NCBI GenBank assembly: GCA_903825105.1
Contig: CAIJZI010000007.1
Coordinates: 23,178 to 87,177, forward strand
Direction of reading: 5' to 3'
DNA from: an uncultured bacterium
GTDB lineage: Bacteria; Patescibacteriota; Minisyncoccia; Phycocordibacterales; Phycocordibacteraceae
DNA: 64,000 bases
Positions 2,137 to 60,892 of this stretch are shown here, piece by piece. Below the pieces are notes generated by a model, which searched no databases, was not told the origin of the DNA, and saw only the letters and a list, made by a program, of their open reading frames with translations. The first letter of the stretch is position 1. Every line of letters starts with the position of its first letter. The translations under genes were made by a program, and so were the position numbers.

Positions 2137-3171
2137 TCACTTCGGATACTTCTGTGCGACCGCGGCATACGCCGCGCGCGACATATTTGAAATAATCGTG
2201 TCTGCCGTTTTTACATCCTTCGCGCTCGTCATCACACAGAGGAGATACGGGTGCGATGGATAATAAATAATGCCGCAGTCAGAGAGCTCGACGCCCGTGG
2301 CGACATTATTTTGAGATAGAACATGCTCGCCATATTTGTGCGCGACGACCGTTCCCTCTGGCACACCTGCGACGAGACCATCAGCGAAGGTCGCCTGCGA
2401 CAAGAGTTTCATCGCCTGCTCTGAACTCTCGGGCGAGAGATAGGTCGCATTATAGAGGACACGGAAGAAGAGCCCGAAGGTGCGCGCAGAAATTTGATAA
2501 TTTTGAGAATCGTCTCCCGGATTTTGGATCCCGAGCGCGACATACACCTGATTCAAAAATTCTGAATTAAGATTCGCGAGGAGCGAGAATGTCGCACCAT
2601 TATCTGAATCGACAACCATCTTATTGATGAGATCTTGTACCGAATAACTATGCCCCGCGACGAGTTCAGACGGCGCCACGAACGGCTCTTTCGGTAAAAC
2701 ACTCGGGTTGTAGTCAATTGTTTTTAAAAAGAGTGACGGATCTTGTTCCATCTGTTTGTAATACGCGATCAAGGTCGGCACCTTGAGAAGACTCGCCGGA
2801 TAATAGGTGTCATTCTGATTTATGCCGATCCACCTGCCCGCGTCCAGATCGCGGAAGTAGACTGCCGCGCGCGTCGCGTCACCACTTTTCACCACAGCAT
2901 CAATAATCGTTTGGAAAGAATTATTTAATGGAATGTAATCACCGAGGAGTGTCGCTTCTGGGGTGTGATAGGCGAGGAGTGGGTGCACAAGCGTGTATGG
3001 TGTTCCCTTTTCTTCAATCGGCGCGAATGATTGTTTGATTGAATCCGAAACAGAGTCACCTGCCAATTTGCCAAAAAAATATCCAGCGATACCTCCGACG
3101 ATTAATCCACCCGCGACGAGAGCCGCGAAGGTTAAAAACTTTTTAGATTTCCATTTTGCCAATATATTCAT
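2137..3171 (-). CDS. membrane-anchored class A beta-lactamase-like serine hydrolase (penicillin-binding fold)
   Basis: SxxK (YPASLLKV), SDN (VVDSDNGAT) and KxG (HKYGEH) motifs; N-terminal TM anchor (FLTFAALVAGGLIVGGIAGYFF); likely start MNILAKW. Confidence 0.55.
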   Translation of the reverse strand: MNILAKWKSKKFLTFAALVAGGLIVGGIAGYFFGKLAGDSVSDSIKQSFAPIEEKGTPYTLVHPLLAYHTPEATLLGDYIPLNNSFQTIIDAVVKSGDATRAAVYFRDLDAGRWIGINQNDTYYPASLLKVPTLIAYYKQMEQDPSLFLKTIDYNPSVLPKEPFVAPSELVAGHSYSVQDLINKMVVDSDNGATFSLLANLNSEFLNQVYVALGIQNPGDDSQNYQISARTFGLFFRVLYNATYLSPESSEQAMKLLSQATFADGLVAGVPEGTVVAHKYGEHVLSQNNVATGVELSDCGIIYYPSHPYLLCVMTSAKDVKTADTIISNMSRAAYAAVAQKYPK

Positions 3172-3272
3172 ACTCCAATAATAACCCGACGGAACCGCCC
3201 TAAACAAAGTGTTACACACCGCGTAGTAAGGGTTGGGAGAGCCATATTATTACTTTATCCTCATTATTACGC

Positions 3273-5024
3273 ATGTCTTTTTCTAAAATTTTAAATACCC
3301 TCAAAAACGCGTGGCATTCTGTCTGGTTGTATGCGATGAGTCATAAAATAATCGCGACGATCGCGGTCATTATTATTTTAGTCGGCGGATATTATGGCTA
3401 CAAGACACTCACTTCTTCGACAACGACGAGTTATATAACTTCTTCTGTCGCTTCGAGCACGATCGTCTCAACCTTGACCGAGACAGGCCAAGTGAGCGCC
3501 TCACAACAGATTTCCCTCTCGCCAAAATCTTCGGGCGAAGTGATTGGCGTGTATGTGAAGCCTGGCGACGCGGTGTATGCCGGCCAGCTCGTCGCACAAC
3601 TTGATGCCACCGATGCGCGGCAATCACTTCAAAATGCCGAGCTCGCGCTTAAGAATGCAGAAATCACTTATGCTCAAACCACAGCGACCTCGACGCTCTC
3701 GCTCAATCTGCTTCAAGCTCAAAACGCTGTCACAAATGCAAACATCTCTCTTCAAAAGACACACGACAGCATCTATTCCTCTCTCGCGAGCACCTATAAC
3801 GATTTTTCAACCATCGTAACGGGGATCGACGGCGTGCTCCACAATTCTGATTCTGCCGGTCGCTCGAATCAAGAAAATGTTGATGCGTATTCTGACATTG
3901 TTTCTTCACACGACGACAATATTCTGATGTATAAAAATTCTGCAGAGACTTCGTATACTGCCGCGCTCGCGGCGTACAACAGCGGACTCGCCACCTATAA
4001 AGCAGTCAGCGGTACCACCGCTTCAAACGACGATCTCGTCGCCCTCGCGAAGACGACTTATGCCACTGCACAAATAATCGCCGAAGCAGTAAAAAATTCT
4101 CACGACTTTTATGACCGCGTGAATACTGATTATTCTCTTTATAAAAATCTCGGTTCTTCTTCGACAGTTTCTAACCTCCTTTCTTCGATCAATTCATACA
4201 CCTCGCTCGTTTCAACAAACTTGAACAATGCACTGACCGTCCAGACCGACATTGTCTCGGCAGAACAGTCGCTAGCCCAAGCTAAGAACGCGCTCGAGTC
4301 GAGCGCGCAGGGTTCGAATGCGCTCACCGTTCAATCTGCCACTCTTTCACTTCAAGAAGCGAAGGATGCGGTGACCACCGCACAAGAAAATCTCGCGAAC
4401 TATTCTGTCGTCGCACCATTCGCGGGAACAATCGCTTCTGTCGGCGTGCAGAAATATGATCAGGCTAGCAACAATACATCGGTCGCGACGCTCGTGAGCT
4501 ACAACAAGATCGCGACACTCTCTGTTTCTGAAGCAGACGAGGTGAATATTAAACAAGGACAGAAAGCGATGCTCACCTTCGACGCTCTTCCTGATGTGAC
4601 CATCGCCGGCACCGTCGCATCTATTTCTAGCGCGGGGAGCGTTTCTTCTGGAGTCGTCTCCTACAGCGTCGATGTTTCGCTCGACACCGCAAATAGCGAT
4701 ATTAAGCCGGGGATGTCTGTCGATGCCGACATTATTACCGCGACAGCAGACGGCATCGCTGTGCCAAATAGTGCGATTAAGACTTCGGGCAATATAAATT
4801 ATGTTCTCGTTATGTCAGCGGCAACGCCGACAAAAGTCCCGGTCACTATTGGCATCACTGACGGCACGAACACCATCGTCACGAGCGGGTTAACTGGTAG
4901 CGAGCAGGTTGTGACGAAGACGGTCACGAGTTCTTCTTCATCAACTTCATCATCTGCAACAAAAACTACATCATCAAGCACAAATAGGAGCGGCCCTCCA
5001 GGAGGAATAATGATGGGATTATAA
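3273..5024 (+). CDS. efflux membrane-fusion (periplasmic adaptor) protein, HlyD/MacA family, with Ser/Thr-rich C-terminal tail
   Basis: N-terminal TM, coiled-coil and beta-barrel adaptor architecture (..VIGVYVKPGDAVYAGQLVAQLD..); directly upstream of MacB-like ATPase and permease. Confidence 0.65.
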   Translation: MSFSKILNTLKNAWHSVWLYAMSHKIIATIAVIIILVGGYYGYKTLTSSTTTSYITSSVASSTIVSTLTETGQVSASQQISLSPKSSGEVIGVYVKPGDAVYAGQLVAQLDATDARQSLQNAELALKNAEITYAQTTATSTLSLNLLQAQNAVTNANISLQKTHDSIYSSLASTYNDFSTIVTGIDGVLHNSDSAGRSNQENVDAYSDIVSSHDDNILMYKNSAETSYTAALAAYNSGLATYKAVSGTTASNDDLVALAKTTYATAQIIAEAVKNSHDFYDRVNTDYSLYKNLGSSSTVSNLLSSINSYTSLVSTNLNNALTVQTDIVSAEQSLAQAKNALESSAQGSNALTVQSATLSLQEAKDAVTTAQENLANYSVVAPFAGTIASVGVQKYDQASNNTSVATLVSYNKIATLSVSEADEVNIKQGQKAMLTFDALPDVTIAGTVASISSAGSVSSGVVSYSVDVSLDTANSDIKPGMSVDADIITATADGIAVPNSAIKTSGNINYVLVMSAATPTKVPVTIGITDGTNTIVTSGLTGSEQVVTKTVTSSSSSTSSSATKTTSSSTNRSGPPGGIMMGL

Positions 5025-5754: not shown

Positions 5755-6979
5755 AAATGACATTTTAGAAGAGACATACGCTGCCCTTCGCGCGAACAAG
5801 GCCCGCTCGGGGCTCACGATGCTCGGCATCGTTATCGGTATCGCTTCAGTGATCGCTCTTATGGCCGTTGGCACAGGCGCGACAAGCTCGATTACTTCGT
5901 CGATCTCTTCGATCGGTTCGAACCTTCTGATCGTGACGCCCGGGGCGACAAAAAACTTCGGCTTCGGCGCCGCCTCGGCGCGAGGATCGGCGCAGACACT
6001 CACCGTCGAAGATGCTACGGCGATTTCTAACAGCATTTCAAATATCAGCGGGATGTCAGTTGTCGTTTCGAGTCGCACACAAGTGACCACGAAAAATTCG
6101 AACACGAACACTTCGATTACCGGCACCGATCCATCCTATCCGGGTGTGCGCAATGTGACGCTCTCGACGGGCAATTTTATTTCAGATGAAAATGTCGCGA
6201 GCATCGCGAAGGTCGCGGTAATTGGCCCGACCGTTCTCACCGACCTCTTCGGCACAGACGCCGTCGACACCGACTCGATTGGGCAAAAAGTTAGGATTAG
6301 CGGATCACAGTACACCGTCATCGGCGTGACGAAGACGAAAGGCAGCTCGGGCTCGAGTAACGCCGATGACATTATTTATATTCCTTACACCACCGCGCAA
6401 CGCTACCTTTCTGGGAATAAATATCTATCACAAATAAATGTTTCGGCAGCGAGTTCTGACTCAATGACGCAGGTTCAAACAGATATAAACGACCTTCTGC
6501 TCACGCGACACAAGATTACCGATTCTACAAAAACTGATTTCTCGATTACTAATCAGGCTGACCTCGTCTCGACATTATCATCCGTCACCTCGACACTCAC
6601 CTATCTTCTCGGCGCGATCGGCGCGATATCGCTCCTCGTCGGCGGCATCGGCATTATGAATATGATGCTCACCAATGTGACCGAGCGCATGCACGAGATC
6701 GGGCTCCGGAAAGCGGTCGGCGCGAAGAAAAAAGATATCAGCATTCAGTTTCTCGCAGAGTCGGTCGCGCTCACTGTCGTCGGCGGCATCATCGGCATTA
6801 TTCTGGGATGCGCAATCGCGTATGTGGTGAATTGGAGTGGTGTGACGAAAACGAGCGTCACCTTATCATCTGTCCTGCTCGCTTTTGGCGTATCAGCAGT
6901 AATCGGTATCGTCTTCGGCTGGTATCCGGCGAAGCGCGCATCAAACTTAAATCCGATTGATGCACTCAGATATGAGTAG
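5747..6979 (+). CDS. ABC transporter permease, FtsX/MacB family
   Basis: N-terminal TM, large periplasmic domain, C-terminal 3-TM FtsX-like region; start MNKNDIL overlaps the ATPase stop. Confidence 0.75.
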   Translation: MNKNDILEETYAALRANKARSGLTMLGIVIGIASVIALMAVGTGATSSITSSISSIGSNLLIVTPGATKNFGFGAASARGSAQTLTVEDATAISNSISNISGMSVVVSSRTQVTTKNSNTNTSITGTDPSYPGVRNVTLSTGNFISDENVASIAKVAVIGPTVLTDLFGTDAVDTDSIGQKVRISGSQYTVIGVTKTKGSSGSSNADDIIYIPYTTAQRYLSGNKYLSQINVSAASSDSMTQVQTDINDLLLTRHKITDSTKTDFSITNQADLVSTLSSVTSTLTYLLGAIGAISLLVGGIGIMNMMLTNVTERMHEIGLRKAVGAKKKDISIQFLAESVALTVVGGIIGIILGCAIAYVVNWSGVTKTSVTLSSVLLAFGVSAVIGIVFGWYPAKRASNLNPIDALRYE

Positions 6980-7098: not shown

Positions 7099-7506
7099 AT
7101 GAAAAATAAAAATATAATGATCACGGGAGTTGTAGCTCTTATTATCGGCGTTAGTCTCGGCTACTTCGGCGGGAACGCTCTTCACCCAGCGGCAGCGACA
7201 CCAACACGCGGGAACTTTTCTGGCATGATGGGCGGTGCGGGACGAGCCGGTGGCAATGGGCTTCTCTCAGGCACGGTCGCGGCAAAGGATTCTGACAGCA
7301 TCACTATCGACACGAAGGACGGTAGCTCGCACATTGTTCTCCTCACGCCAAACACGACATTTCAAAAGAGCGTGAGCGGCACAGAGAGCGATGTGGCTAC
7401 CGGCTCGACGATTATTGTCTCGGGCACGACCAATAGCGATGGCTCGGTCTCTGCCACTTCGATCCAATTGCGCCCCGCGATGCCTCCTGCTACAGTACAA
7501 AAATGA
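7099..7506 (+). CDS. hypothetical secreted/membrane-anchored protein (Gly/Ser/Thr-rich)
   Basis: N-terminal TM/signal (ITGVVALIIGVSLGYF); no family recognised. Confidence 0.4.
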   Translation: MKNKNIMITGVVALIIGVSLGYFGGNALHPAAATPTRGNFSGMMGGAGRAGGNGLLSGTVAAKDSDSITIDTKDGSSHIVLLTPNTTFQKSVSGTESDVATGSTIIVSGTTNSDGSVSATSIQLRPAMPPATVQK

Positions 7507-7646: not shown

Positions 7647-7703
7647 TCTCCAATTAATATCGCATAGTATAAAAAGAAACCGAGCCCATGGGGCTCGGTG
7701 AGA

Positions 7704-9864: not shown

Positions 9865-11091
9865 ATGACTGAGCCACTTTCGACCGACCCGTATAAAGGC
9901 GTCCGCGACTTTTATCCTAGCGATTATGCACGAATGAACGCGATGTTCGCGCGCATCCGCGAGACATTATTTAAGTGGGGTTATGAAGAATACAACGCAT
10001 CGCCCTTGGAACGCGCCGAGATCTACGAAGCGAAGACTTCAGAAGAAATCGTGAATGAGCAGACCTATACTTTCACCGACCGCGGAGAACGCCGCGTGAC
10101 GCTGCGCCCCGAGATGACACCAACCCTCGCGAGAATGGTCTCGGCGAAGCGCCGCGAGCTCGCCTTCCCGCTCCGCTGGTTCTCTATCGGCAATCGCTTC
10201 CGCTATGAGCGTCCACAAAAAGGCAGGCTGCGAGAGTTTTACCAAACCGACATCGACCTTATCGGCCTCCCTGAAGGCGAAGCAGATCTTGAGATTATTA
10301 AAATCGCTTCAGAAATTTTGAAATCTTTTGGTGCTAAAGAAAGTGACTTTATCATTCGCATCAATTCGCGTTCTCTCTTAAACGAAGCGTGTCGCGAGGC
10401 CGGGCTCACGAGTGACGGTGTGCGCCAGTACCTCCGTCTCCTCGATAAAAAAGCGAAAATAACGGTGGAAGAATTTAAAGAAGCACTCGCCGCGATTACT
10501 ACCAAAGATCCGCTCTCTCTTATTCAGACGGAAAAGATGGACGCATTTCTCGCGACTCTCAAAGAACGCGGCGTTATGAATGCGACCTTTGACGCTGGTA
10601 TCACGCGCGGGTTTGATTATTACACCGGGATGGTTTTTGAAATATATGATACAAACCCGACGAATCCGCGCGCACTCTTCGGCGGCGGTCGCTACGACGG
10701 GCTTGTCGCCCTCTTCGGCGGCGACCCGATCCCTGCAGTTGGGTTCGCGCTCGGTGATGTGACGCTTGCCGACTTCCTCGAGACGCACAATCTTGTACCG
10801 AAGTCAGACTTCGGTAAACCGAAACTCTATATCGGTACCCCGTCGGTAGATACGATTCCTGCGGCACAAACATTCGCTAACACACTCCGCGAACAGGGCG
10901 TGTGCGTCTTCGTTAATCTCACGAGCCGCGGGCTCGGCGACCAGATTAAAGATGCGGTGAAGCGCGACATTCCCTTCTTCCTCGCGTACGGCGCTGATGA
11001 AGAAAAAAATAAAACGGTAAAGATGAAAGTGCTCGCGACGGGTGAAGAAAAAAATATCCCTGTTTCTGAAATCATAAGCGTTATCAAATAA
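9865..11091 (+). CDS. hisS: histidyl-tRNA synthetase
   Basis: class II motifs; LRPEMTP, GGRYDGL; length 408 aa. Confidence 0.9.
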   Translation: MTEPLSTDPYKGVRDFYPSDYARMNAMFARIRETLFKWGYEEYNASPLERAEIYEAKTSEEIVNEQTYTFTDRGERRVTLRPEMTPTLARMVSAKRRELAFPLRWFSIGNRFRYERPQKGRLREFYQTDIDLIGLPEGEADLEIIKIASEILKSFGAKESDFIIRINSRSLLNEACREAGLTSDGVRQYLRLLDKKAKITVEEFKEALAAITTKDPLSLIQTEKMDAFLATLKERGVMNATFDAGITRGFDYYTGMVFEIYDTNPTNPRALFGGGRYDGLVALFGGDPIPAVGFALGDVTLADFLETHNLVPKSDFGKPKLYIGTPSVDTIPAAQTFANTLREQGVCVFVNLTSRGLGDQIKDAVKRDIPFFLAYGADEEKNKTVKMKVLATGEEKNIPVSEIISVIK

Positions 11092-11092
11092 T

Positions 11093-11677
11093 ATGCGCGT
11101 CATTACCTTCGATATTGAATCTATTTCTGACTCGGTGGTGCGCGGGCATATCGATGTACGCGAACAAGAACTCACCGTCGTCGCGATTCACGATTCTGAA
11201 ACAGGAGAATATTCTGCCTATTTTAAAGATGAGCTACCTCAGCTCTGGCCGATTATCGAGCGCGCCGATATGCTCGTCGGATTCAATTCTGACTCATTCG
11301 ATATTCCGCTTCTGAATCGCTATTATCCCGGAGACTTGTCGAGTATTCGTTCACTCGACCTCTTAAGCGAAGTACAAAAAGCGCTCGGTCGCCGTATCCG
11401 CCTCCAGTCAATCGCCGAGGGCACTTTGGGTAAAAGTAAGTCAGGCGACGGGCTCACCGCAGGAGAATGGTGGAAGAGTGGCGACCGAGAAAAGGTGCGA
11501 GAATATTGTATCGACGATGTGCGCATCACGAGAGCAATTTATGAATACGCGCTCAAAAATGGCGTATTAAAATATAAAGACCTGCGCGATATCCGCGATA
11601 TTAAAATAGACACCTCGAGCTGGAGCGCCGAGCCAGAACAAAAACCGGCGGTTATGACACACGCACTTCAATTATGA
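11093..11677 (+). CDS. DEDD-family 3'-5' exonuclease
   Basis: Exo I FDIES, Exo II FNSDSFDIPLL, Exo III YCIDDVRITRAIYEY. Confidence 0.6.
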   Translation: MRVITFDIESISDSVVRGHIDVREQELTVVAIHDSETGEYSAYFKDELPQLWPIIERADMLVGFNSDSFDIPLLNRYYPGDLSSIRSLDLLSEVQKALGRRIRLQSIAEGTLGKSKSGDGLTAGEWWKSGDREKVREYCIDDVRITRAIYEYALKNGVLKYKDLRDIRDIKIDTSSWSAEPEQKPAVMTHALQL

Positions 11678-14638: not shown

Positions 14639-16324
14639 TTACATTAGTGAAAAAGATGCGAGACGCGCAGAAATTTTCGCGCACTCGGCTTGTGCATTTT
14701 TAATCGCTTCAGAGTCTCCAAGAGCTTCAATTCGGCGTAAGTGTAGAACAGCCTCTTGATACCTCTCGCGAATGACTGTTTCTTCAAAAGCATGAAGAAG
14801 CTCGTCCGCCACATCTTCGTTCGGTTTTTCTCCGAACATTTGTTCAGCGTTAAAGAGCGCTGGCTCTGGAGGTATCCCAGCCGGAAATGACTGGTCCCCA
14901 ATAATTCGACAATACTCCGTTTTGACACGATTGGCAAGTGGTGTCCCCGGGTAAGCATACACCACCGAGAGTAGCTGTTCTGCACGAATATCTCGAGGCA
15001 TCCTTTTATCAGACTTCTCCGCACTATGTGTAGTACGGCTGGCAGGGTCAGGCTGTTTCGCGACCCTTTTCAACGATTCTTTAATCGTCTCATTCGAGAG
15101 GCCGAGCGAGCGCGCGGTAATTTGGGTAAAATGCTCGCGCTCCATCGGGCTCTGCATCGCGGCGATAAGCGGCAGGACGATTCTCTCTGCAGCCGAAACG
15201 AGGCGGTGAGGATCGCGCTCCCTCTCGCTAAGCGAGGCGAGGAAAAAATCGACAATGGGCTTCGCGGCGACAACACATTTTGAAAATTCCTTCGGATCTT
15301 CGGTAATTAAATCAGCCGGGTCCTTCCCGCTAGTGAGTCGCGCAGCCTTTACCTTAAGCCCAGCAGACAAAGCGAGCATCGCGGAGCGCGCGGTCGCGGT
15401 GAGCCCCGCAGTGTCGGAGTCGAGCACGAGCATAAGATTATCGCTGTAGCGCTTGATAAGCGTGATGTGCCTTTCAGAAAGTGCCGTACCGGACAAGGCA
15501 ATAGTGTTTTCAAATCCTGTTTGGTGCGCGAGGAGCGCGTCCATTTGACCTTCAACGAGGAGTGCGAATTTACGCACGCGCATCGCGTCCTTCGCGCGGT
15601 CGATACCAAAAAGAATTTCTGACTTGTGGTAGAGATCAGTCTCGGGGCTGTTGAGATATTTTGCTTCGTCATCGGGAGAAAGGGCGCGGCCGGTAAAGGC
15701 TACGACCTTTCCAGAGCTGTCGCATATCGGGAACATGAGGCGATTACGAAATCGATCATAAAAAGTCCCTTGCTTCCCGTCTGCTTCTTTGATGAGCCCT
15801 GCGGCGAGCAATTCTTGAGTCGTGAAGCCGAGCATCGCCATCGCCTCGAGAAGCGAGCGCCACGCGTCAGGCGCGAAGCCGAGCCGCCATGAAGAAATCG
15901 ACTCTTCACTTAATCCGCGACTCTTCGCATAGTCGAATGCAGGACTATTTTTAATCTTTTCTGCATACCACTCGCTCGCTTTATTCATCAATTCGCGTAA
16001 GCGCTCTTTCCTCGACTGCGCTTCAGTATCGACACTCCCCGAATATTCTATTTTAACGCCCGCTTTTTCTGCGAGAATTTTTAACGCACCCTTGAAGTCG
16101 ACACCTTCGATCTTTTCTATAAAAGAGAATCCGTCGCCGCCGACTCCACAGCCGAAGCAGTGCCAAGTCCCGCGCTCGGGGCTGACATGAAATGATGGCG
16201 TCTTCTCTTTGTGGAATGGACACAATCCGCGAAGCGACCTTCCGGCTTTTGTAAGCTTCACATAGCCGCCAACGATGTCCTGAATCTCGAGGCGGTCTTT
16301 AATCTGTTGTACCGTGTCTGACAT
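14639..16324 (-). CDS. dnaG: DNA primase
   Basis: CHC2 zinc finger ([20 protein letters not shown]), TOPRIM domain; upstream of rpoD (MMS operon order). Confidence 0.9.
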
Positions 16325-16631: not shown

Positions 16632-16676
16632 CAAACCCGGCGCGAGCTCTAGCAGCTCGCGCCGATTCTTTTTTAT
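16632..16676 (+). terminator. rho-independent terminator
   Basis: GGCGCGAGCT-CTAGC-AGCTCGCGCC then GATTCTTTTTTAT. Confidence 0.7.
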
Positions 16677-16771
16677 GTTGGACATCGGAAGTCCAACACA
16701 TTTAGGCGTGCGGTTGACAGTGGCGAATATTTATACTAATCTCAATTTGGATAGATTTTTGCGAGGTGCTT

Positions 16772-25431: not shown

Positions 25432-26154
25432 TTACTTCTCCATCCTCCATTTGTCAATATTCGCATGATGGCCGGTTTGGAGGACTTTTGGCACGCGATA
25501 ATTTTTACCTTTAAATAGAATAGTTTCGGGTCGCGTGTAGACCGCGCTCGAGGCGATGCGGAGCTCTTCAACCGATGTATCTTTGCCGAGAACCCCTGGC
25601 AGGCGGCGCGTAACAGCGTCGATGATCGCGAGCGCCGGCACTTCTCCGCCAGTATAAGTCGCCTCGCCAACAGCAAATTCTTTGACTGTTGCGAGTGTTT
25701 TCAAAATTTTCTTCGCGCGTTCGTCGATGCCTTCATAACGACCGCAGACGAGAATCACATTCTCGTATTCCGCGAGCGCGTCAGCATCTTTATTGGTGAA
25801 TTGTTTGGCGCTGGGCGAGAACCATACGACCAATGCCTTTCGTCCATGTTTGGACTTACGAAATCCCTCATCAGATGATGGATTTCGTAAGTCCCTCATA
25901 CGGCCCAATGCTTTCTGGACAGCCTTAATCACAGGCTCAGCCTGCATCACCATCCCTGGACCACCGCCATAGGGCTTGTCATCTACTTTTTTATAACTTC
26001 CTTCTGGCCCTTTAATAAAATCACGTGGATTCTGATATTTTATTGAAATCTTTTTTTCTTTTTGCGCACGACCAATGATTGATGTGTTCAGGTACGCATC
26101 GCAGGCTTCTGGAAACAATGTAATGAGATTAAATTTCATCGACCACCTGATCAA
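25432..26154 (-). CDS. trmD: tRNA (guanine37-N1)-methyltransferase TrmD with in-frame palindromic-element insertion
   Basis: MKFNLITLFPE N-terminus, SPOUT knot motifs; 15-aa insert DLRNPSSDEGFRKSK encoded by palindrome 25852-25894. Confidence 0.85.
   Translation of the reverse strand: MIRWSMKFNLITLFPEACDAYLNTSIIGRAQKEKKISIKYQNPRDFIKGPEGSYKKVDDKPYGGGPGMVMQAEPVIKAVQKALGRMRDLRNPSSDEGFRKSKHGRKALVVWFSPSAKQFTNKDADALAEYENVILVCGRYEGIDERAKKILKTLATVKEFAVGEATYTGGEVPALAIIDAVTRRLPGVLGKDTSVEELRIASSAVYTRPETILFKGKNYRVPKVLQTGHHANIDKWRMEK
25852..25894. repeat. palindromic element family A inside trmD coding sequence
   Basis: GGACTTACGAAATCC-CTCATCAGATGAT-GGATTTCGTAAGTCC; arms perfectly complementary; preceded by CATGTTTGG as in other copies. 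Confidence 0.8.
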
Positions 26155-35523: not shown

Positions 35524-36111
35524 TTAAATCAAATGTAAAAACGACTTGCGATGAATCGCGCAGGGGCCGTATTTTTTAAGCATTTCATAATGCAGTTTGG
35601 TGCCATAACCTTTGTGCTTCTCGAAGCCGTATTCAGGATATTTGATCGCGAGCTCGAGCATTAAACGATCGCGCAGAACCTTCGCCACGATAGAGGCGAG
35701 CGAGATAATCGGCACGAGGTCATCGCCGTTGATTATGGTCTCCTGTGAATATTCTTTTGGCGCATGTAACCCGCCATCGAGTAAAATGATGGATTTCGTA
35801 AACCCATCATTCGGCGCGAGTTTGTTCACACCGCGCGCGAGCGCTTTATTTATCGCCGGGACAATTCCCTCTTTATCAATCATTTCTGCACTCTCGAATT
35901 CAACAGCGAAACGCGCGTCGCCAAGGGCGACGCGTGCTTCCAGCATTTCAAAAATCTCCTCTCTTTTCTTCTCTGATAGCTTTTTAGAATCCGCGACACC
36001 CTTGAATTCTTTCATTACATCAAATCCCTCTGCCACTACCGCTACCCCAACAGCCACCGGCCCCGCGAGTGGTCCTCGCCCTGCCTCGTCAACTCCAATT
36101 AGAAACTTCAT
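35524..36111 (-). CDS. rnhB: ribonuclease HII
   Basis: GVDEAGRGPLAGPV active-site motif. Confidence 0.85.
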   Translation of the reverse strand: MKFLIGVDEAGRGPLAGPVAVGVAVVAEGFDVMKEFKGVADSKKLSEKKREEIFEMLEARVALGDARFAVEFESAEMIDKEGIVPAINKALARGVNKLAPNDGFTKSIILLDGGLHAPKEYSQETIINGDDLVPIISLASIVAKVLRDRLMLELAIKYPEYGFEKHKGYGTKLHYEMLKKYGPCAIHRKSFLHLI

Positions 36112-47638: not shown

Positions 47639-47683
47639 TGGATTTCGTCATCCCATCACTAATGATGGGTTTACGAAATCCAT
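47639..47683. repeat. palindromic element family A, intergenic copy (imperfect)
   Basis: GGATTTCGTCATCCC-ATCACTAATGAT-GGGTTTACGAAATCC preceded by ATGTTTGG as in the coding copies. Confidence 0.7.
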
Positions 47684-58527: not shown

Positions 58528-59537
58528 TATCTGATTCTATCAGCAAGAAAATCTTTTATTGCATTTTCTATGTGGAGAGCGTCGAGTCCATAATGAGCAA
58601 GTAATTCATCCGGAGTTCCTGATTGCCCAAATTCGTCATTTATACCAAGTCGAAGAACTGGCACCGGATGTGCCGTTGATAAAAATTCTGAGATCGCGCT
58701 CCCGAAACCGCCAGCGATTTGATGTTCTTCAATCGTAACGACGCGACCGGCGAGCACTGCTGCGTCGAGTACCATTTTTTCATCAAGAGGCTTAATGGTG
58801 GGTATATGTAAAACGATAGATTCTACGCCATTTTTTAGCAAATTTTCTGCTACTAAAAGAGCGGTGTGACTGAGCGAGCCGGTTGATAAAATCGCGACTT
58901 TGGGTGCAGGGGATTCCCAAAGCGTGAGCGCCTTCCCAATAGAAAACGGCGTTTCTACTGTGGTGAAAACGGGCGTCGCTGCGCGTCCGAAGCGAATGTA
59001 TACCGGCCCGTTCGTTTTTGCCGCTTCTATAACCGCCTTTCGCGCCTCTTCGCTATCGCCAGGATTAATCACCGTCATATTCGGTAACACACGCATCATA
59101 CTGATATCTTCGAGCATCTGATGCGTCGCACCATCAGGCCCAACAGAGACGCCCGCGTGCATCCCGCAGATCTTCACCGGCATCTGGTTGAGCGCAATCG
59201 TGGTGCGAATTTGTTCATAATTTCTCCCCGGAGAAAACGCCGCATAGCTCGCGATAAAAGGGATTTCCCCTGCTGCTGCCATTCCTGCCGCGACTGTCGC
59301 CATATTTTGTTCAGCGACGCCCATTTCTATAAATCGTTCAGGAAATACTTTTTCAAATTCTTCTGCGCGTGTTGACTCTTTTACATCTGCGCACAAAACA
59401 ACAACGCGCGAGTCATTCTTCCCCGCTTCAACAATGCCTCTGCCAAAGCCGTCGCGCGTCGGTTCTTTTTTATTATTCTCTTCAAAAATATCACTTGCTA
59501 GATTCGCATCCGCAGACACCATATTACTTATATGCAC
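58527..59537 (-). CDS. tktB: transketolase, C-terminal subunit (split enzyme)
   Basis: pyrimidine-binding and C-terminal transketolase domains (..FIEMGVAEQNM..). Confidence 0.85.
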   Translation of the reverse strand: MHISNMVSADANLASDIFEENNKKEPTRDGFGRGIVEAGKNDSRVVVLCADVKESTRAEEFEKVFPERFIEMGVAEQNMATVAAGMAAAGEIPFIASYAAFSPGRNYEQIRTTIALNQMPVKICGMHAGVSVGPDGATHQMLEDISMMRVLPNMTVINPGDSEEARKAVIEAAKTNGPVYIRFGRAATPVFTTVETPFSIGKALTLWESPAPKVAILSTGSLSHTALLVAENLLKNGVESIVLHIPTIKPLDEKMVLDAAVLAGRVVTIEEHQIAGGFGSAISEFLSTAHPVPVLRLGINDEFGQSGTPDELLAHYGLDALHIENAIKDFLADRIR

Positions 59538-60016
59538 TGAGTTGCGCCGGCAACCATTGCTGCCGTTTCCTGCCGCGAATTACCACTATTGTCCACACAC
59601 CAATATTTCGTATTGTCTGAAACGAGTTGCACCTGAATCGCGTAGGCACTTGTTGAATTATTGCAGGTGACAGTTCCCGAGCCATTTGCAGAGTCTGCCG
59701 CAGCAACAGCCTTCGCGACTGTAGTGTCAACAACAAAGACAGAGCCGGCAACAGCACAAGAGTTGGTCGCTCCAGCGGTACCATAACTATTGTTCCCGCC
59801 GCTTGAATAAAAGATCTCTGCTTGTGTCTGCGCAGAATGCAGGTCTGACTTGATCGCCGCATCACTCCCTTTCGATCTTGCCGTATTAAGAGAAGCAAGC
59901 ACCACGGCGGAGAGAATGCCAATAATGGCGATAACGACGAGTAATTCAATAAGGGTAAACCCAGCACTAACAGTTAGTGCTCGGGTGAAGCCGTTTTTAT
60001 TTATATTATATTTCAT
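59528..60016 (-). CDS. type IV pilin / pseudopilin
   Basis: class III signal/N-methylation motif ..RALTVSAGFTLIELLVVIAIIGIL.. Confidence 0.75.
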   Translation of the reverse strand: MKYNINKNGFTRALTVSAGFTLIELLVVIAIIGILSAVVLASLNTARSKGSDAAIKSDLHSAQTQAEIFYSSGGNNSYGTAGATNSCAVAGSVFVVDTTVAKAVAAADSANGSGTVTCNNSTSAYAIQVQLVSDNTKYWCVDNSGNSRQETAAMVAGATQCI

Positions 60017-60028
60017 AATTATATTGTA

Positions 60029-60892
60029 TCAGATGTAAAGAGCTTTTATAAACTTTTCACCCTCTTCTTTTGCTGGAACTTTCCCGTGCCAACGGTAGTC
60101 ATTTTCTATTTCTGTAACGCCTTTACCAGGGATAGTGCGCGCGACAATAAGCGTGGGCTTATCTTGTACTGATTTTGCCTTTTCAACAGCATCGATAAAA
60201 ATCTGTATGTCATTCCCGTCTATTTCAATCACATGCCAATTAAATGCCCTATATTTATCTGCGAGCGATTCTAACGGCATCACTTTTTCTGTCGTTCCGT
60301 CAATTTGAATATTGTTACGATCTATAATCGCAGTGAGGTTTGATAATTTATTTTTCCCGATGAACATTACTGCCTCCCAGGTATTTCCTTCTTCCTGCTC
60401 GCCATCGCTCATCACGCAGTACACCCTCCGCCCATGTTTGGACTTCGTAAATCCATCATCAGATGATGGATTTACGAAGTCCCTCAATACAAGTGCCATT
60501 CCTGCTGCTTGTGAGAGACCTTCGCCCAAAGGGCCAGAGGTAGTTTCGAGACCTGGTAATCGAATGCGCTCTGGATGCCCTTGCAGCCTGCTGCCAAATT
60601 TTCTTAAAGTTAAACATTCTTCAACAGGAAAATAGCCTGCGTGTGCCATAGCCGCATAAAGAACAGGACAAATGTGCCCATTACTTAAAACAAGCCGATC
60701 GCGCTCCTCCCACTCTGGGTTTTTTGGATCATGTTTCAGAATGTGAAAATAAAGAGCGGTAAAAATATCTGCCATGCCAAGCGCGCCTGCAGTGTGCCCG
60801 CTCCCCGCTTCAACAAGCATTCTGATAATCGTCTCGCGAATCATGCGCGCCTTTTCTTTGAGCGCGGTGATTTCTTCTTCAGTACATTTCAT
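60029..60892 (-). CDS. tktA: transketolase, N-terminal subunit (split enzyme) with in-frame palindromic-element insertion
   Basis: TPP-binding ..GSGHTAGALG.., ..SDGEQEEG..; 17-aa insert RDFVNPSSDDGFTKSKH encoded by palindrome 60440-60482. Confidence 0.85.
   Translation of the reverse strand: MKCTEEEITALKEKARMIRETIIRMLVEAGSGHTAGALGMADIFTALYFHILKHDPKNPEWEERDRLVLSNGHICPVLYAAMAHAGYFPVEECLTLRKFGSRLQGHPERIRLPGLETTSGPLGEGLSQAAGMALVLRDFVNPSSDDGFTKSKHGRRVYCVMSDGEQEEGNTWEAVMFIGKNKLSNLTAIIDRNNIQIDGTTEKVMPLESLADKYRAFNWHVIEIDGNDIQIFIDAVEKAKSVQDKPTLIVARTIPGKGVTEIENDYRWHGKVPAKEEGEKFIKALYI
60440..60482. repeat. palindromic element family A inside tktA coding sequence (perfect 43-bp palindrome)
   Basis: GGACTTCGTAAATCC-ATCATCAGATGAT-GGATTTACGAAGTCC, preceded by CATGTTTGG. 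Confidence 0.85.

Follow-up and report, generated by a model that had tools for sequence, protein, structure and literature searches.

Introduction

Two described kinds of short palindromic repeat bear on the element reported here. Rickettsia palindromic elements (RPEs), of which RPE-1 and its relatives were reportedly described by Ogata et al. 2000, colonize open reading frames (ORFs) in frame; RPE-1 is ~100–150 nt long, and we know of no transposase associated with RPEs. Repetitive extragenic palindromic (REP) units, the hairpin-forming REP doublets called REPINs and the tyrosine transposases associated with REPs (RAYTs), a literature said to include Nunvar 2010, Bertels & Rainey 2011 and Ton-Hoang 2012, have to our knowledge been investigated nearly exclusively in Proteobacteria, in which, by definition, the repeats lie outside genes. 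Here we analyze a perfect 43-nt palindrome, element A, that lies in frame in the gene for the transketolase N-terminal subunit (tkt, protein Tkt) of an uncultured patescibacterium, within a 64-kb stretch (64,000 nt) of contig CAIJZI010000007.1 that we call the window. We conclude that element A is probably a REPIN-like doublet of REP-type units, cognate to a RAYT-like transposase of the Y1 type and carried by its host as a tolerated selfish passenger.

The REPs and bacterial interspersed mosaic elements (BIMEs) of E. coli with TnpA-REP/RayT, and the REPINs of Pseudomonas, exemplify REP/REPIN-RAYT systems (PMC3116915, PMC5581495). Di Nocera et al. 2013 (PMC3733652) described REP monomers and dimers that lie in frame within genes for known proteins of Opitutus terrae, Thioalkalivibrio and Rickettsia conorii. 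[quoted passage not shown] In-frame intragenic REPs as such are therefore already known from other phyla. The first-pass annotation of this DNA had supposed that such an element family was new for this kind of genome; in agreement, no paper turned up by our literature searches describes REPs, RAYTs or palindromic elements for Patescibacteria or the Candidate Phyla Radiation (CPR). The novelty lies in the clade, in the unit family, in the mostly intragenic location of its copies with a strong frame bias, in the recurrent use of orthologous loops, and in a unit copy inside the transposase ORF.

Results and discussion

Anatomy of element A

Element A (60440..60482, minus strand) is situated in the gene for a split-type transketolase N-terminal subunit (60029..60892, minus strand; PF00456, Transketolase_N). 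Its sequence, GGACTTCGTAAATCCATCATC-A-GATGATGGATTTACGAAGTCC, is a 21+1+21 palindrome with arms that are 100% complementary, exactly as first annotated. It is composed of two inverted hairpin units, GGACTT-CGT-AAATCC and GGATTT-ACG-AAGTCC, joined by ATCATC-N-GATGAT. In the tkt frame the element is read as DFVNPSSDDGFTKS, within the contexts ..LRDFVNPSSDDGFTKSKHGRR.. and ...VLRDFVNPSSDDGFTKSKHGRRVYCVMSDG...; the tryptic peptide predicted to cover the insert is DFVNPSSDDGFTK. Direct reading of the sequence revealed that the two remaining frames are blocked by TAA and TGA, so that a single frame is open and, because the element is palindromic, the identical peptide is encoded on both strands. On the coding strand, the unit's outer foot is AAACATGG (60432..60439, minus strand); it is read K-H-G and is the counterpart of the nACATG foot found in single units of relatives. 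In agreement, the inserts of Tkt homologs finish in KHG, NMGG or YMG.

By our own arithmetic, a perfect 21-nt inverted repeat has a chance of ~1e-8 in 64 kb and is not expected. The element A region folds into a hairpin of -34.1 kcal/mol (z=-6.7) as RNA and of -23.5 kcal/mol (z=-8.4) as DNA. No Rfam family matches element A, a tRNA being the sole Rfam match within the window. The identical 43 nt are also present in two other loci, L003 and L157. The Tkt proteins of the window and L003 are 82% identical, and their genes are 70% identical at the nucleotide level and 44% at third positions; element A is identical at 43/43 positions between these genes, and the best other 43-nt stretch reaches at most 38/43. 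In L157 the same doublet lies in frame in a different protein. An assembly artefact was ruled out by the occurrence of the element in independent assemblies (L001, L002, L003 and L157). Excision at the RNA level, as an intron or intervening sequence, was also rejected: loss of 43 nt breaks the frame, the only open frame is the one used, and Rfam finds nothing.

Copies of the unit in the window

With ≤3 mismatches allowed, we counted 11 occurrences of the arm motif in the window, where 1.8 would be expected; not one of 100 shuffled sequences yielded that many. In total the window holds three doublets and two single units. The copies first annotated in trmD and in intergenic DNA, elements B and C, were both borne out, and two single units had been missed.

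Element B (25852..25894, minus strand) lies in frame in trmD (25432..26154, minus strand), where it is read DLRNPSSDEGFRKS; insert-free TrmD homologs have 218 aa (KALKG-KKGKKVIVWF). Its outer foot, AAACATGG (25844..25851, minus strand), is the same as that of A, the flank common to both on the plus strand being CCATGTTT. Compared with A, both 3-nt loops of B are flipped and one arm position is mismatched, giving an identity of 36/43 that rises to 42/43 once the two loops (CGT/ACG) are flipped. This pattern implies that each 15-nt arm is itself a small hairpin, GGACTT-loop-AAATCC, and that the arms change together. Element C is a diverged doublet (47639..47682, minus strand) with arm cores GGATTTCGTCATCCC / GGGTTTACGAAATCC, located in the intergenic space bounded by the stop of rpsB (47691) and the start of tsf (47610). 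The first of the overlooked single units, copy D (35787..35809, minus strand; TGATGGGTTT-ACG-AAATCCATCA on the coding strand), lies in frame in rnhB, is read NDGFTKSI, and is identical over 25 nt to the right arm of C. The other belongs to a different subfamily (16675..16701; ATGTT-GGACATCGGAAGTCC-AACACAT); it is intergenic, with a core identical to the unit of locus L005.

No target-site duplication, the mark of a miniature inverted-repeat transposable element, flanks A or B (CCATGTTT|...|CTCA). The flanks CCATGTTT and CTCA were rejected as duplications because they are parts of the unit or doublet, and the GATGTTTGG repeat around C is accounted for by the unit foot.

Copies A–D, like their host genes, all lie on the minus strand, and their polarity is uniform, with the AAACAT foot downstream. 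The GC skew on the plus strand is negative in 14 of 16 4-kb bins and near zero or slightly positive in the other two, which suggests that the minus strand is the leading strand for A–D and fits co-orientation with replication, four copies being too few for a test of bias.

The unit family in related genomes

The repeat family follows the consensus CATGTn-GGAC-N7-GTCC-nACATG, a ~27-nt unit with a 12-bp stem and a 3-nt loop, of which the window unit GGACTT-CGT-AAATCC is a diverged form. At each of the tkt loci of four relatives (L003–L006) we observed a variant of the consensus specific to that genome, as single units in intergenic DNA and as an inverted doublet forming the Tkt insert. L004, L005 and L006 contain 5–10 units per 20 kb each. 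These doublets show what is characteristic of REPINs, as do A, which is 21/21 complementary although its arms are imperfect hairpins, and B, in which the loops are flipped together.

When 185,579 species genomes were scanned for the unit consensus, at least 120 loci matched. About 90 of those listed are from Patescibacteria, often with several matches per genome; genomes such as those of Streptomyces and Actinoplanes have single matches, apparently by chance. The pattern used for a metagenome scan, GGACTTNNNAAATCCNTCATC, was too loose: among the matches listed, ~115 of 120 were chance matches in unrelated conserved genes, and the useful loci were L147, L157, L222 and L246. L147 contains a single unit within a Tgt-like ORF, and L246 a doublet that uses another frame and whose center is devoid of the TGA of that frame. 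Three syntenic control loci with an empty Tkt loop (L249–L251, 15–19 kb each) contain 0–1 GGAC-N7-GTCC units, no repeated hairpin family and no Y1 transposase gene, both of which are present in 4/4 filled loci, a comparison as small as 3 versus 4 loci of ~20 kb each.

The scan pattern was also matched by a separate multi-copy palindrome, CATGTAGGACAATAATAGTCCATACATG, in L010, L040, L060, L080 (Clostridia metagenome-assembled genome RGIG2480), L085 and L116; this repeat of rumen and gut Clostridia is probably an unrelated family. Intein domains are present in DnaE and giant surface proteins (L247 4738–9180, L004 1–6829, L005 5832–7148), indicating that the hosts harbor other in-frame selfish elements too.

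Units bracket Y1 transposase genes in relatives

Each of L003–L006 encodes, at most 10 kb from tkt, a protein of ~220 aa that matches PF01797 (Y1_Tnp). In L004, L005 and L006, the three loci where this is testable, a Y1 gene is bracketed by the very unit that builds the Tkt doublet of the same genome; in L004, for example, CCATGTAGGACCTCGGAGGTCCTACATGG is found on both sides of the gene at 14639–15295. The hairpins that bracket the L003 Y1 gene and a second Y1 gene of L006 belong to other families. The second hairpin family of L003, AACTTGGAAGTyGGACTTCCAAGTT (5794–5826, 6940–6975, 7436–7476, 7660–7690), brackets its Y1 gene and also occurs twice in frame inside it (KKLGSWTSKPV, HQLGSPTSKLV).

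A homolog of the Y1 protein is encoded in 34 of the 120 listed loci of the unit scan, and at least 28 of 38 distinct Y1 ORFs have a unit 10–25 nt upstream of the start and another 0–10 nt past the stop. Units of the window types bracket Y1 genes too. The Y1 gene of L222 (extended as L247) is bracketed by ATGAC-GGACTTCGTAAATCC-GTCAT, whose 15-nt core is identical to an element A arm, C.A mismatch included; the core GGATTTCGTAAACCC of copies C and D brackets the Y1_Tnp gene of L104; and L034 is likewise among the relatives with a unit-bracketed Y1 gene. The orientation of the bracketing units was rejected as a defining feature: it is mixed, about half inverted and about half direct, and loops that flip readily make it unusable for this purpose.

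In nearly every RAYT-like gene, the unit of the respective genome is present a third time, in frame within the ORF. This internal copy follows a conserved LYEFND motif and co-varies with the flanking units. It is read MTDFVNPSS in L222 (gene 2961–3632, equal to L247 10001–10663), HVGRTTSYI in L007 and MWDFVSPT in L034, and further Y1 ORFs with an internal copy are found in L014 and L093. The loop formed by the internal copy (residues 38–58) is the sole disordered segment of the AlphaFold 2 model of the Y1 protein. One typical unit-bracketed RAYT-like gene, L050 1477–2139 (DASVZE010000024.1), is on a contig of a metagenome-assembled genome labeled Chloroflexota and is 58% identical to the best of three Y1 queries, pointing either to mis-binning or to presence outside Patescibacteria.

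Nature of the Y1 proteins

The Y1 proteins contain an HUH motif (H.HLL) and a tyrosine motif, Y.HLNP. Pfam Y1_Tnp (PF01797) matches them above threshold, and their sole NCBIfam match is REP_Tyr_transpos (RAYT, NF047646), with 30–46 bits against a cutoff of 80. A single-sequence search of the PDB found nothing relevant, and a profile search returned marginal matches to ISDra2 TnpA (E = 0.03) and E. coli TnpA-REP 4ER8 (E = 0.27). The AlphaFold model of one of the proteins, P0241, has a predicted local distance difference test score (pLDDT) of 75 and a predicted template-modeling score (pTM) of 0.73. Its fold matches IS608 TnpA (E = 5e-4) and the REP-bound RAYT 4ER8 (E = 6e-4), with 2A6M about equal to 4ER8; 4ER8 gives the longest alignment and the best query-normalized TM score, 0.44.

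Genomic behavior, unlike fold, appears to separate RAYTs from IS200. In three same-genome pairs, Y1 paralogs are only 33–62% identical and each is associated with a different hairpin family; no near-identical copies were seen in these pairs, which come from genome loci rather than complete genomes. RAYTs are described as single-copy genes associated with REPs and REPINs (PMC5581495), and the behavior of the Y1 genes in these pairs is compatible with this. The family has at least 2,897 database members, which, where named, are called only "transposase", "putative transposase" or "hypothetical protein".

Intragenic location and reading frame

Within the Patescibacteria loci, 59% of 158 units fall in open frames of ≥120 aa, compared with 89% of random positions, indicating that units are depleted in genes though still mostly intragenic. 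Of the 72 units that are not near a Y1 gene, 40 fall in open frames of ≥200 aa, and these use the three frames in a ratio of 32:6:2 (p=2e-9). The favored frame, CAT GTn GGA C.. ... ..G TCC nAC ATG, is read H-V-G-x-x-x-S-x-M. The hosts are true housekeeping genes and include those for class I aminoacyl-tRNA synthetases, PheRS beta, GluRS, UvrB, UvrC, PurH, Lnt, an M24 peptidase and an aminotransferase. As judged from the sequences, this frame bias, together with the loss of the stop codon in the L246 doublet, is the pattern that selection on a translated product would be expected to leave.

Recurrent use of the same loops

When the solved split transketolase 6YAK was aligned to the window Tkt, a 12-residue gap appeared at VNPSSDDGFTKS, and the shortest Tkt homologs (275–276 aa), which are insert-free, show FRMDNKKQRVYC at the element A position. 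These alignments confirm the extra loop that had been proposed on first inspection. Our set of 120 Tkt homologs, 71–82% identical, comes from Paceibacteria, Kaiserbacteria and other Patescibacteria. About half of them have 8–25 additional residues in the element A loop, varied in sequence but built on one skeleton, D-xxx-P[ST]-SD-[VDE]G-xxx-S (for example DLGGPTSDVGPPRS, DVVRPTSDVGRTTS, DIGSPTSDVGLPMS and DTRCSSSDDEHLVS), and the insert MSGRTTSRH of some homologs is exactly one 27-nt unit in frame. TrmD behaves similarly: besides the insert-free 218-aa form, many homologs carry different doublets at one loop, and others single units in two different frames (MSGRSTSRH, HVGRRTSHM). A loop of a class I synthetase apparently also holds differing unit variants between genomes (L025, L026, L056).

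In a neighbor-joining tree of Tkt with the loop masked, insert-free and insert-bearing forms are interleaved; the tree is star-like, shallow and unsupported, and serves for qualitative use only, not for event counts. The AlphaFold monomer of Tkt is of low confidence (pLDDT 68) and presents the insert as coil between a helix and a strand; the argument for surface exposure is based on the 6YAK alignment and not on this model. For the first-pass annotation, finding this peptide at the same site in homologs of unrelated taxa would have counted against its interpretation. This is partly the case, and informatively so: the loop is filled in dozens of Paceibacteria Tkt homologs, each with its own genome's variant of the unit, which makes the Tkt loop a site of repeated landing or retention and not a single event. 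Since the loop variant equals the local Y1-bracketing variant in 3/3 cases, loop copies appear to be re-inserted or converted as the variant of the genome turns over; independent drift in place would not yield such a match. Either the targeting of pre-existing units, gene conversion, or a combination of few permissive sites with a high insertion rate could cause this turnover.

Other recurrent inserts occupy the same Tkt loop outside the GGAC..GTCC unit, namely NFQFPISNFQNQKP in P0024, P0041, P0069, P0082 and P0094, and IPSTSLGTGD in P0058, P0062, P0068 and P0076; these may represent further repeat families. P0005 and P0049, on adjacent short branches of the tree, have quite different loop peptides (MKDLGGHSSDEGPPRSKHGRR versus TSGERRAARESLDPRPSTLDPR), perhaps because compensating frameshifts on either side cause the same DNA to be read in a different frame.

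Proposed origin of element A and alternatives

On the evidence above we consider it likely that the palindrome is a REPIN-like doublet cognate to a RAYT-like Y1 transposase. Judging from the bracketing architecture and from the chemistry of TnpA-REP and IS200/IS605 enzymes, the Y1 protein would mobilize the units: it would probably bind the folded single-stranded hairpin and cut and join it at the foot, which would disperse units and doublets through the genome. Because these genomes have little intergenic space, many insertions would hit genes, and only copies that keep the frame open in a permissive surface loop would survive. The survivors would be translated as a short, hydrophilic, probably disordered and presumably neutral loop, such as DFVNPSSDDGFTKS in Tkt. 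The most fitting view of element A is that of a selfish passenger which its host tolerates, not of a functional component of transketolase.

Several observations weigh against this interpretation. No Y1_Tnp gene lies within the 64-kb window, bracketing being known here from relatives. No insertion motif or target-site rule was found among the copies, and the units lack the unpaired GTAG or CGTC tag that classical REPs carry. The majority of copies are intragenic, unlike classical "extragenic" REPs. The Y1 proteins score below the cutoff of the curated RAYT model, and neither sequence nor fold searches separate them from IS200/IS608 TnpA. Finally, the comparison of empty with filled Tkt loops is a small one.

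The affinity of the Y1 proteins to IS200/IS608 TnpA raises the alternative that the Y1 gene is a mobile, multi-copy insertion sequence (IS) of the IS200/IS605 type and that the hairpins are its ends or miniature deletion derivatives. The PF01797 match, a fold that resembles IS608 and ISDra2 TnpA about as well as 4ER8, and hairpins flanking the gene as in IS200 are all compatible with this. We nevertheless regard it as very unlikely, because Y1 genes of the same genome are divergent with their own hairpin families and no near-identical copies were seen, the two flanks share one palindromic unit instead of differing as left and right ends, the gene tables of the loci examined list no tnpB neighbor, and the short units far outnumber the Y1 genes. 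The first-pass annotation had instead likened the element to RPEs, and its in-frame, loop-located, repeated occurrence is indeed the behavior described for them. In its strict form this likeness would make element A an orphan palindrome with no dedicated transposase, spread by a host process or by recombination, to which the lack of a Y1 gene in the window would correspond. However, Y1_Tnp genes of relatives are bracketed by units of this very family, one of them by the exact A-type core, and the elements are units or doublets of 27–55 nt, not of the length of RPE-1. The orphan version is thus very unlikely, and a REPIN-like doublet with a RAYT-like transposase is the better class. The two terms need not compete: the equation of RPE-4 and RPE-6 with CGTC-tagged REPs (PMC3733652) means that "RPE" and "REP" are not exclusive categories, which also speaks against the orphan version.

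We assign the lowest probability, that of a highly improbable explanation, to a functional module, whether an RNA or DNA hairpin acting as terminator, attenuator, RNase III site or protein-binding site, or an adaptive surface loop. The hairpin is very stable, its arms are conserved far above the gene background, a hairpin at the place of copy C, between rpsB and tsf, could influence read-through, and nearly every Y1 gene contains a unit copy. Yet one and the same unit recurs in proteins that are unrelated as well as in intergenic DNA, the sequence in orthologous loops differs between genomes or is missing, with insert-free and insert-bearing forms interleaved in the tree, the inserts are coil or of low confidence in the models, and no Rfam family matches.

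Returning to the REPIN-like interpretation, a more specific version, which we put forward only tentatively and consider less probable than not, is that Paceibacteria host a REP-RAYT lineage adapted to intragenic life. Taken jointly, its parts are that the units might be shaped so that either orientation gives a harmless hydrophilic loop (HVGxxxSxM or MxD...PSSD.G...S); that the loops of Tkt, TrmD and class I aminoacyl-tRNA synthetases might be persistent sites, re-colonized or converted at variant turnover, which would mean that the enzyme targets pre-existing units (repeat "homing" or replacement); and that the unit inside the transposase ORF might serve autoregulation or as a template for co-evolution of enzyme and repeat.

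Comparison with described systems

Like REP/REPIN-RAYT systems, the family consists of short imperfect palindromic units of genome-specific sequence; inverted doublets give a long hairpin with changes compensated across the arms; and a Y1/HUH gene is bracketed by units, with paralogs that, in the same-genome pairs compared, are divergent and have their own repeat families. It differs in that copies are mostly intragenic, in frame and strongly biased in frame, and in its foot, which is self-complementary, a paired CATG followed by GGAC..GTCC, without the GTAG/CGTC tag; GT(A/G/T/C)G is present in the units, yet inside the stem. The proteins are longer (~220 aa), fall below the RAYT cutoff and have a unit copy in their own ORF, and the host clade is Patescibacteria, with small gene-dense genomes. 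The REPs of Opitutus, Thioalkalivibrio and Rickettsia share the in-frame insertion, including insertion into repair genes (uvrA and uvrB there, UvrB and UvrC here), whereas the sequence family and tags differ, and in those REP-rich genomes only a minority of the copies is intragenic. PMC3733652 does not report that successive unit variants reuse orthologous loops in many species.

The resemblance to RPEs lies in palindromic repeats that colonize ORFs in frame, at fold-tolerated positions and in reduced genomes, whereas the units here are 27 nt and the doublets 43–55 nt, both are Y1-linked, RPE-1 is larger, and the host clade differs. With IS200/IS605 TnpA the Y1 proteins share the catalytic fold and probably a hairpin-recognizing single-strand chemistry, the differences being that no multi-copy identical genes and no TnpB partner were seen at the loci examined, and that identical units are found on both flanks.

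These findings place in a large lineage of ultra-small, gene-dense bacteria a distinct unit family together with a distant RAYT-like enzyme family, the majority of the repeats being located within essential genes. For evolution, they offer a natural experiment on how selfish DNA persists without junk DNA and on how protein loops vary, and for the puzzle of the RPEs they provide a transposase-linked model for in-frame palindromic elements of the Rickettsia type. In practice, such inserts make the marker proteins of CPR phylogeny look more divergent than they are and open gaps in their alignments, and perfect palindromes can also affect assembly and gene calling. The pattern of same loop and different variant makes repeat turnover testable with population metagenomes.

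Additional observations

The genes for the N- and C-subunits of transketolase are separated by a slot whose small gene differs from genome to genome and which resembles a variable cassette site within a split enzyme operon. In the window it contains a pilin-like N_methyl protein (59528–60016, minus strand), in L003 a Gp49/helix-turn-helix (HTH) pair (10837–11473), and in L004 a 23S_rRNA_IVP/bAvd protein (10908–11315); L005 has none, and in L006 the coordinates are 10875–11093. Elsewhere in the window, a perfect 38-nt palindrome, GCATAGGAAACTCCTATGT|ACATAGGAGTTTCCTATGC, occupies intergenic positions 1494–1531 upstream of the ORF at 1556–2053. It is not terminator-like, and its sequence is unrelated to the element family.

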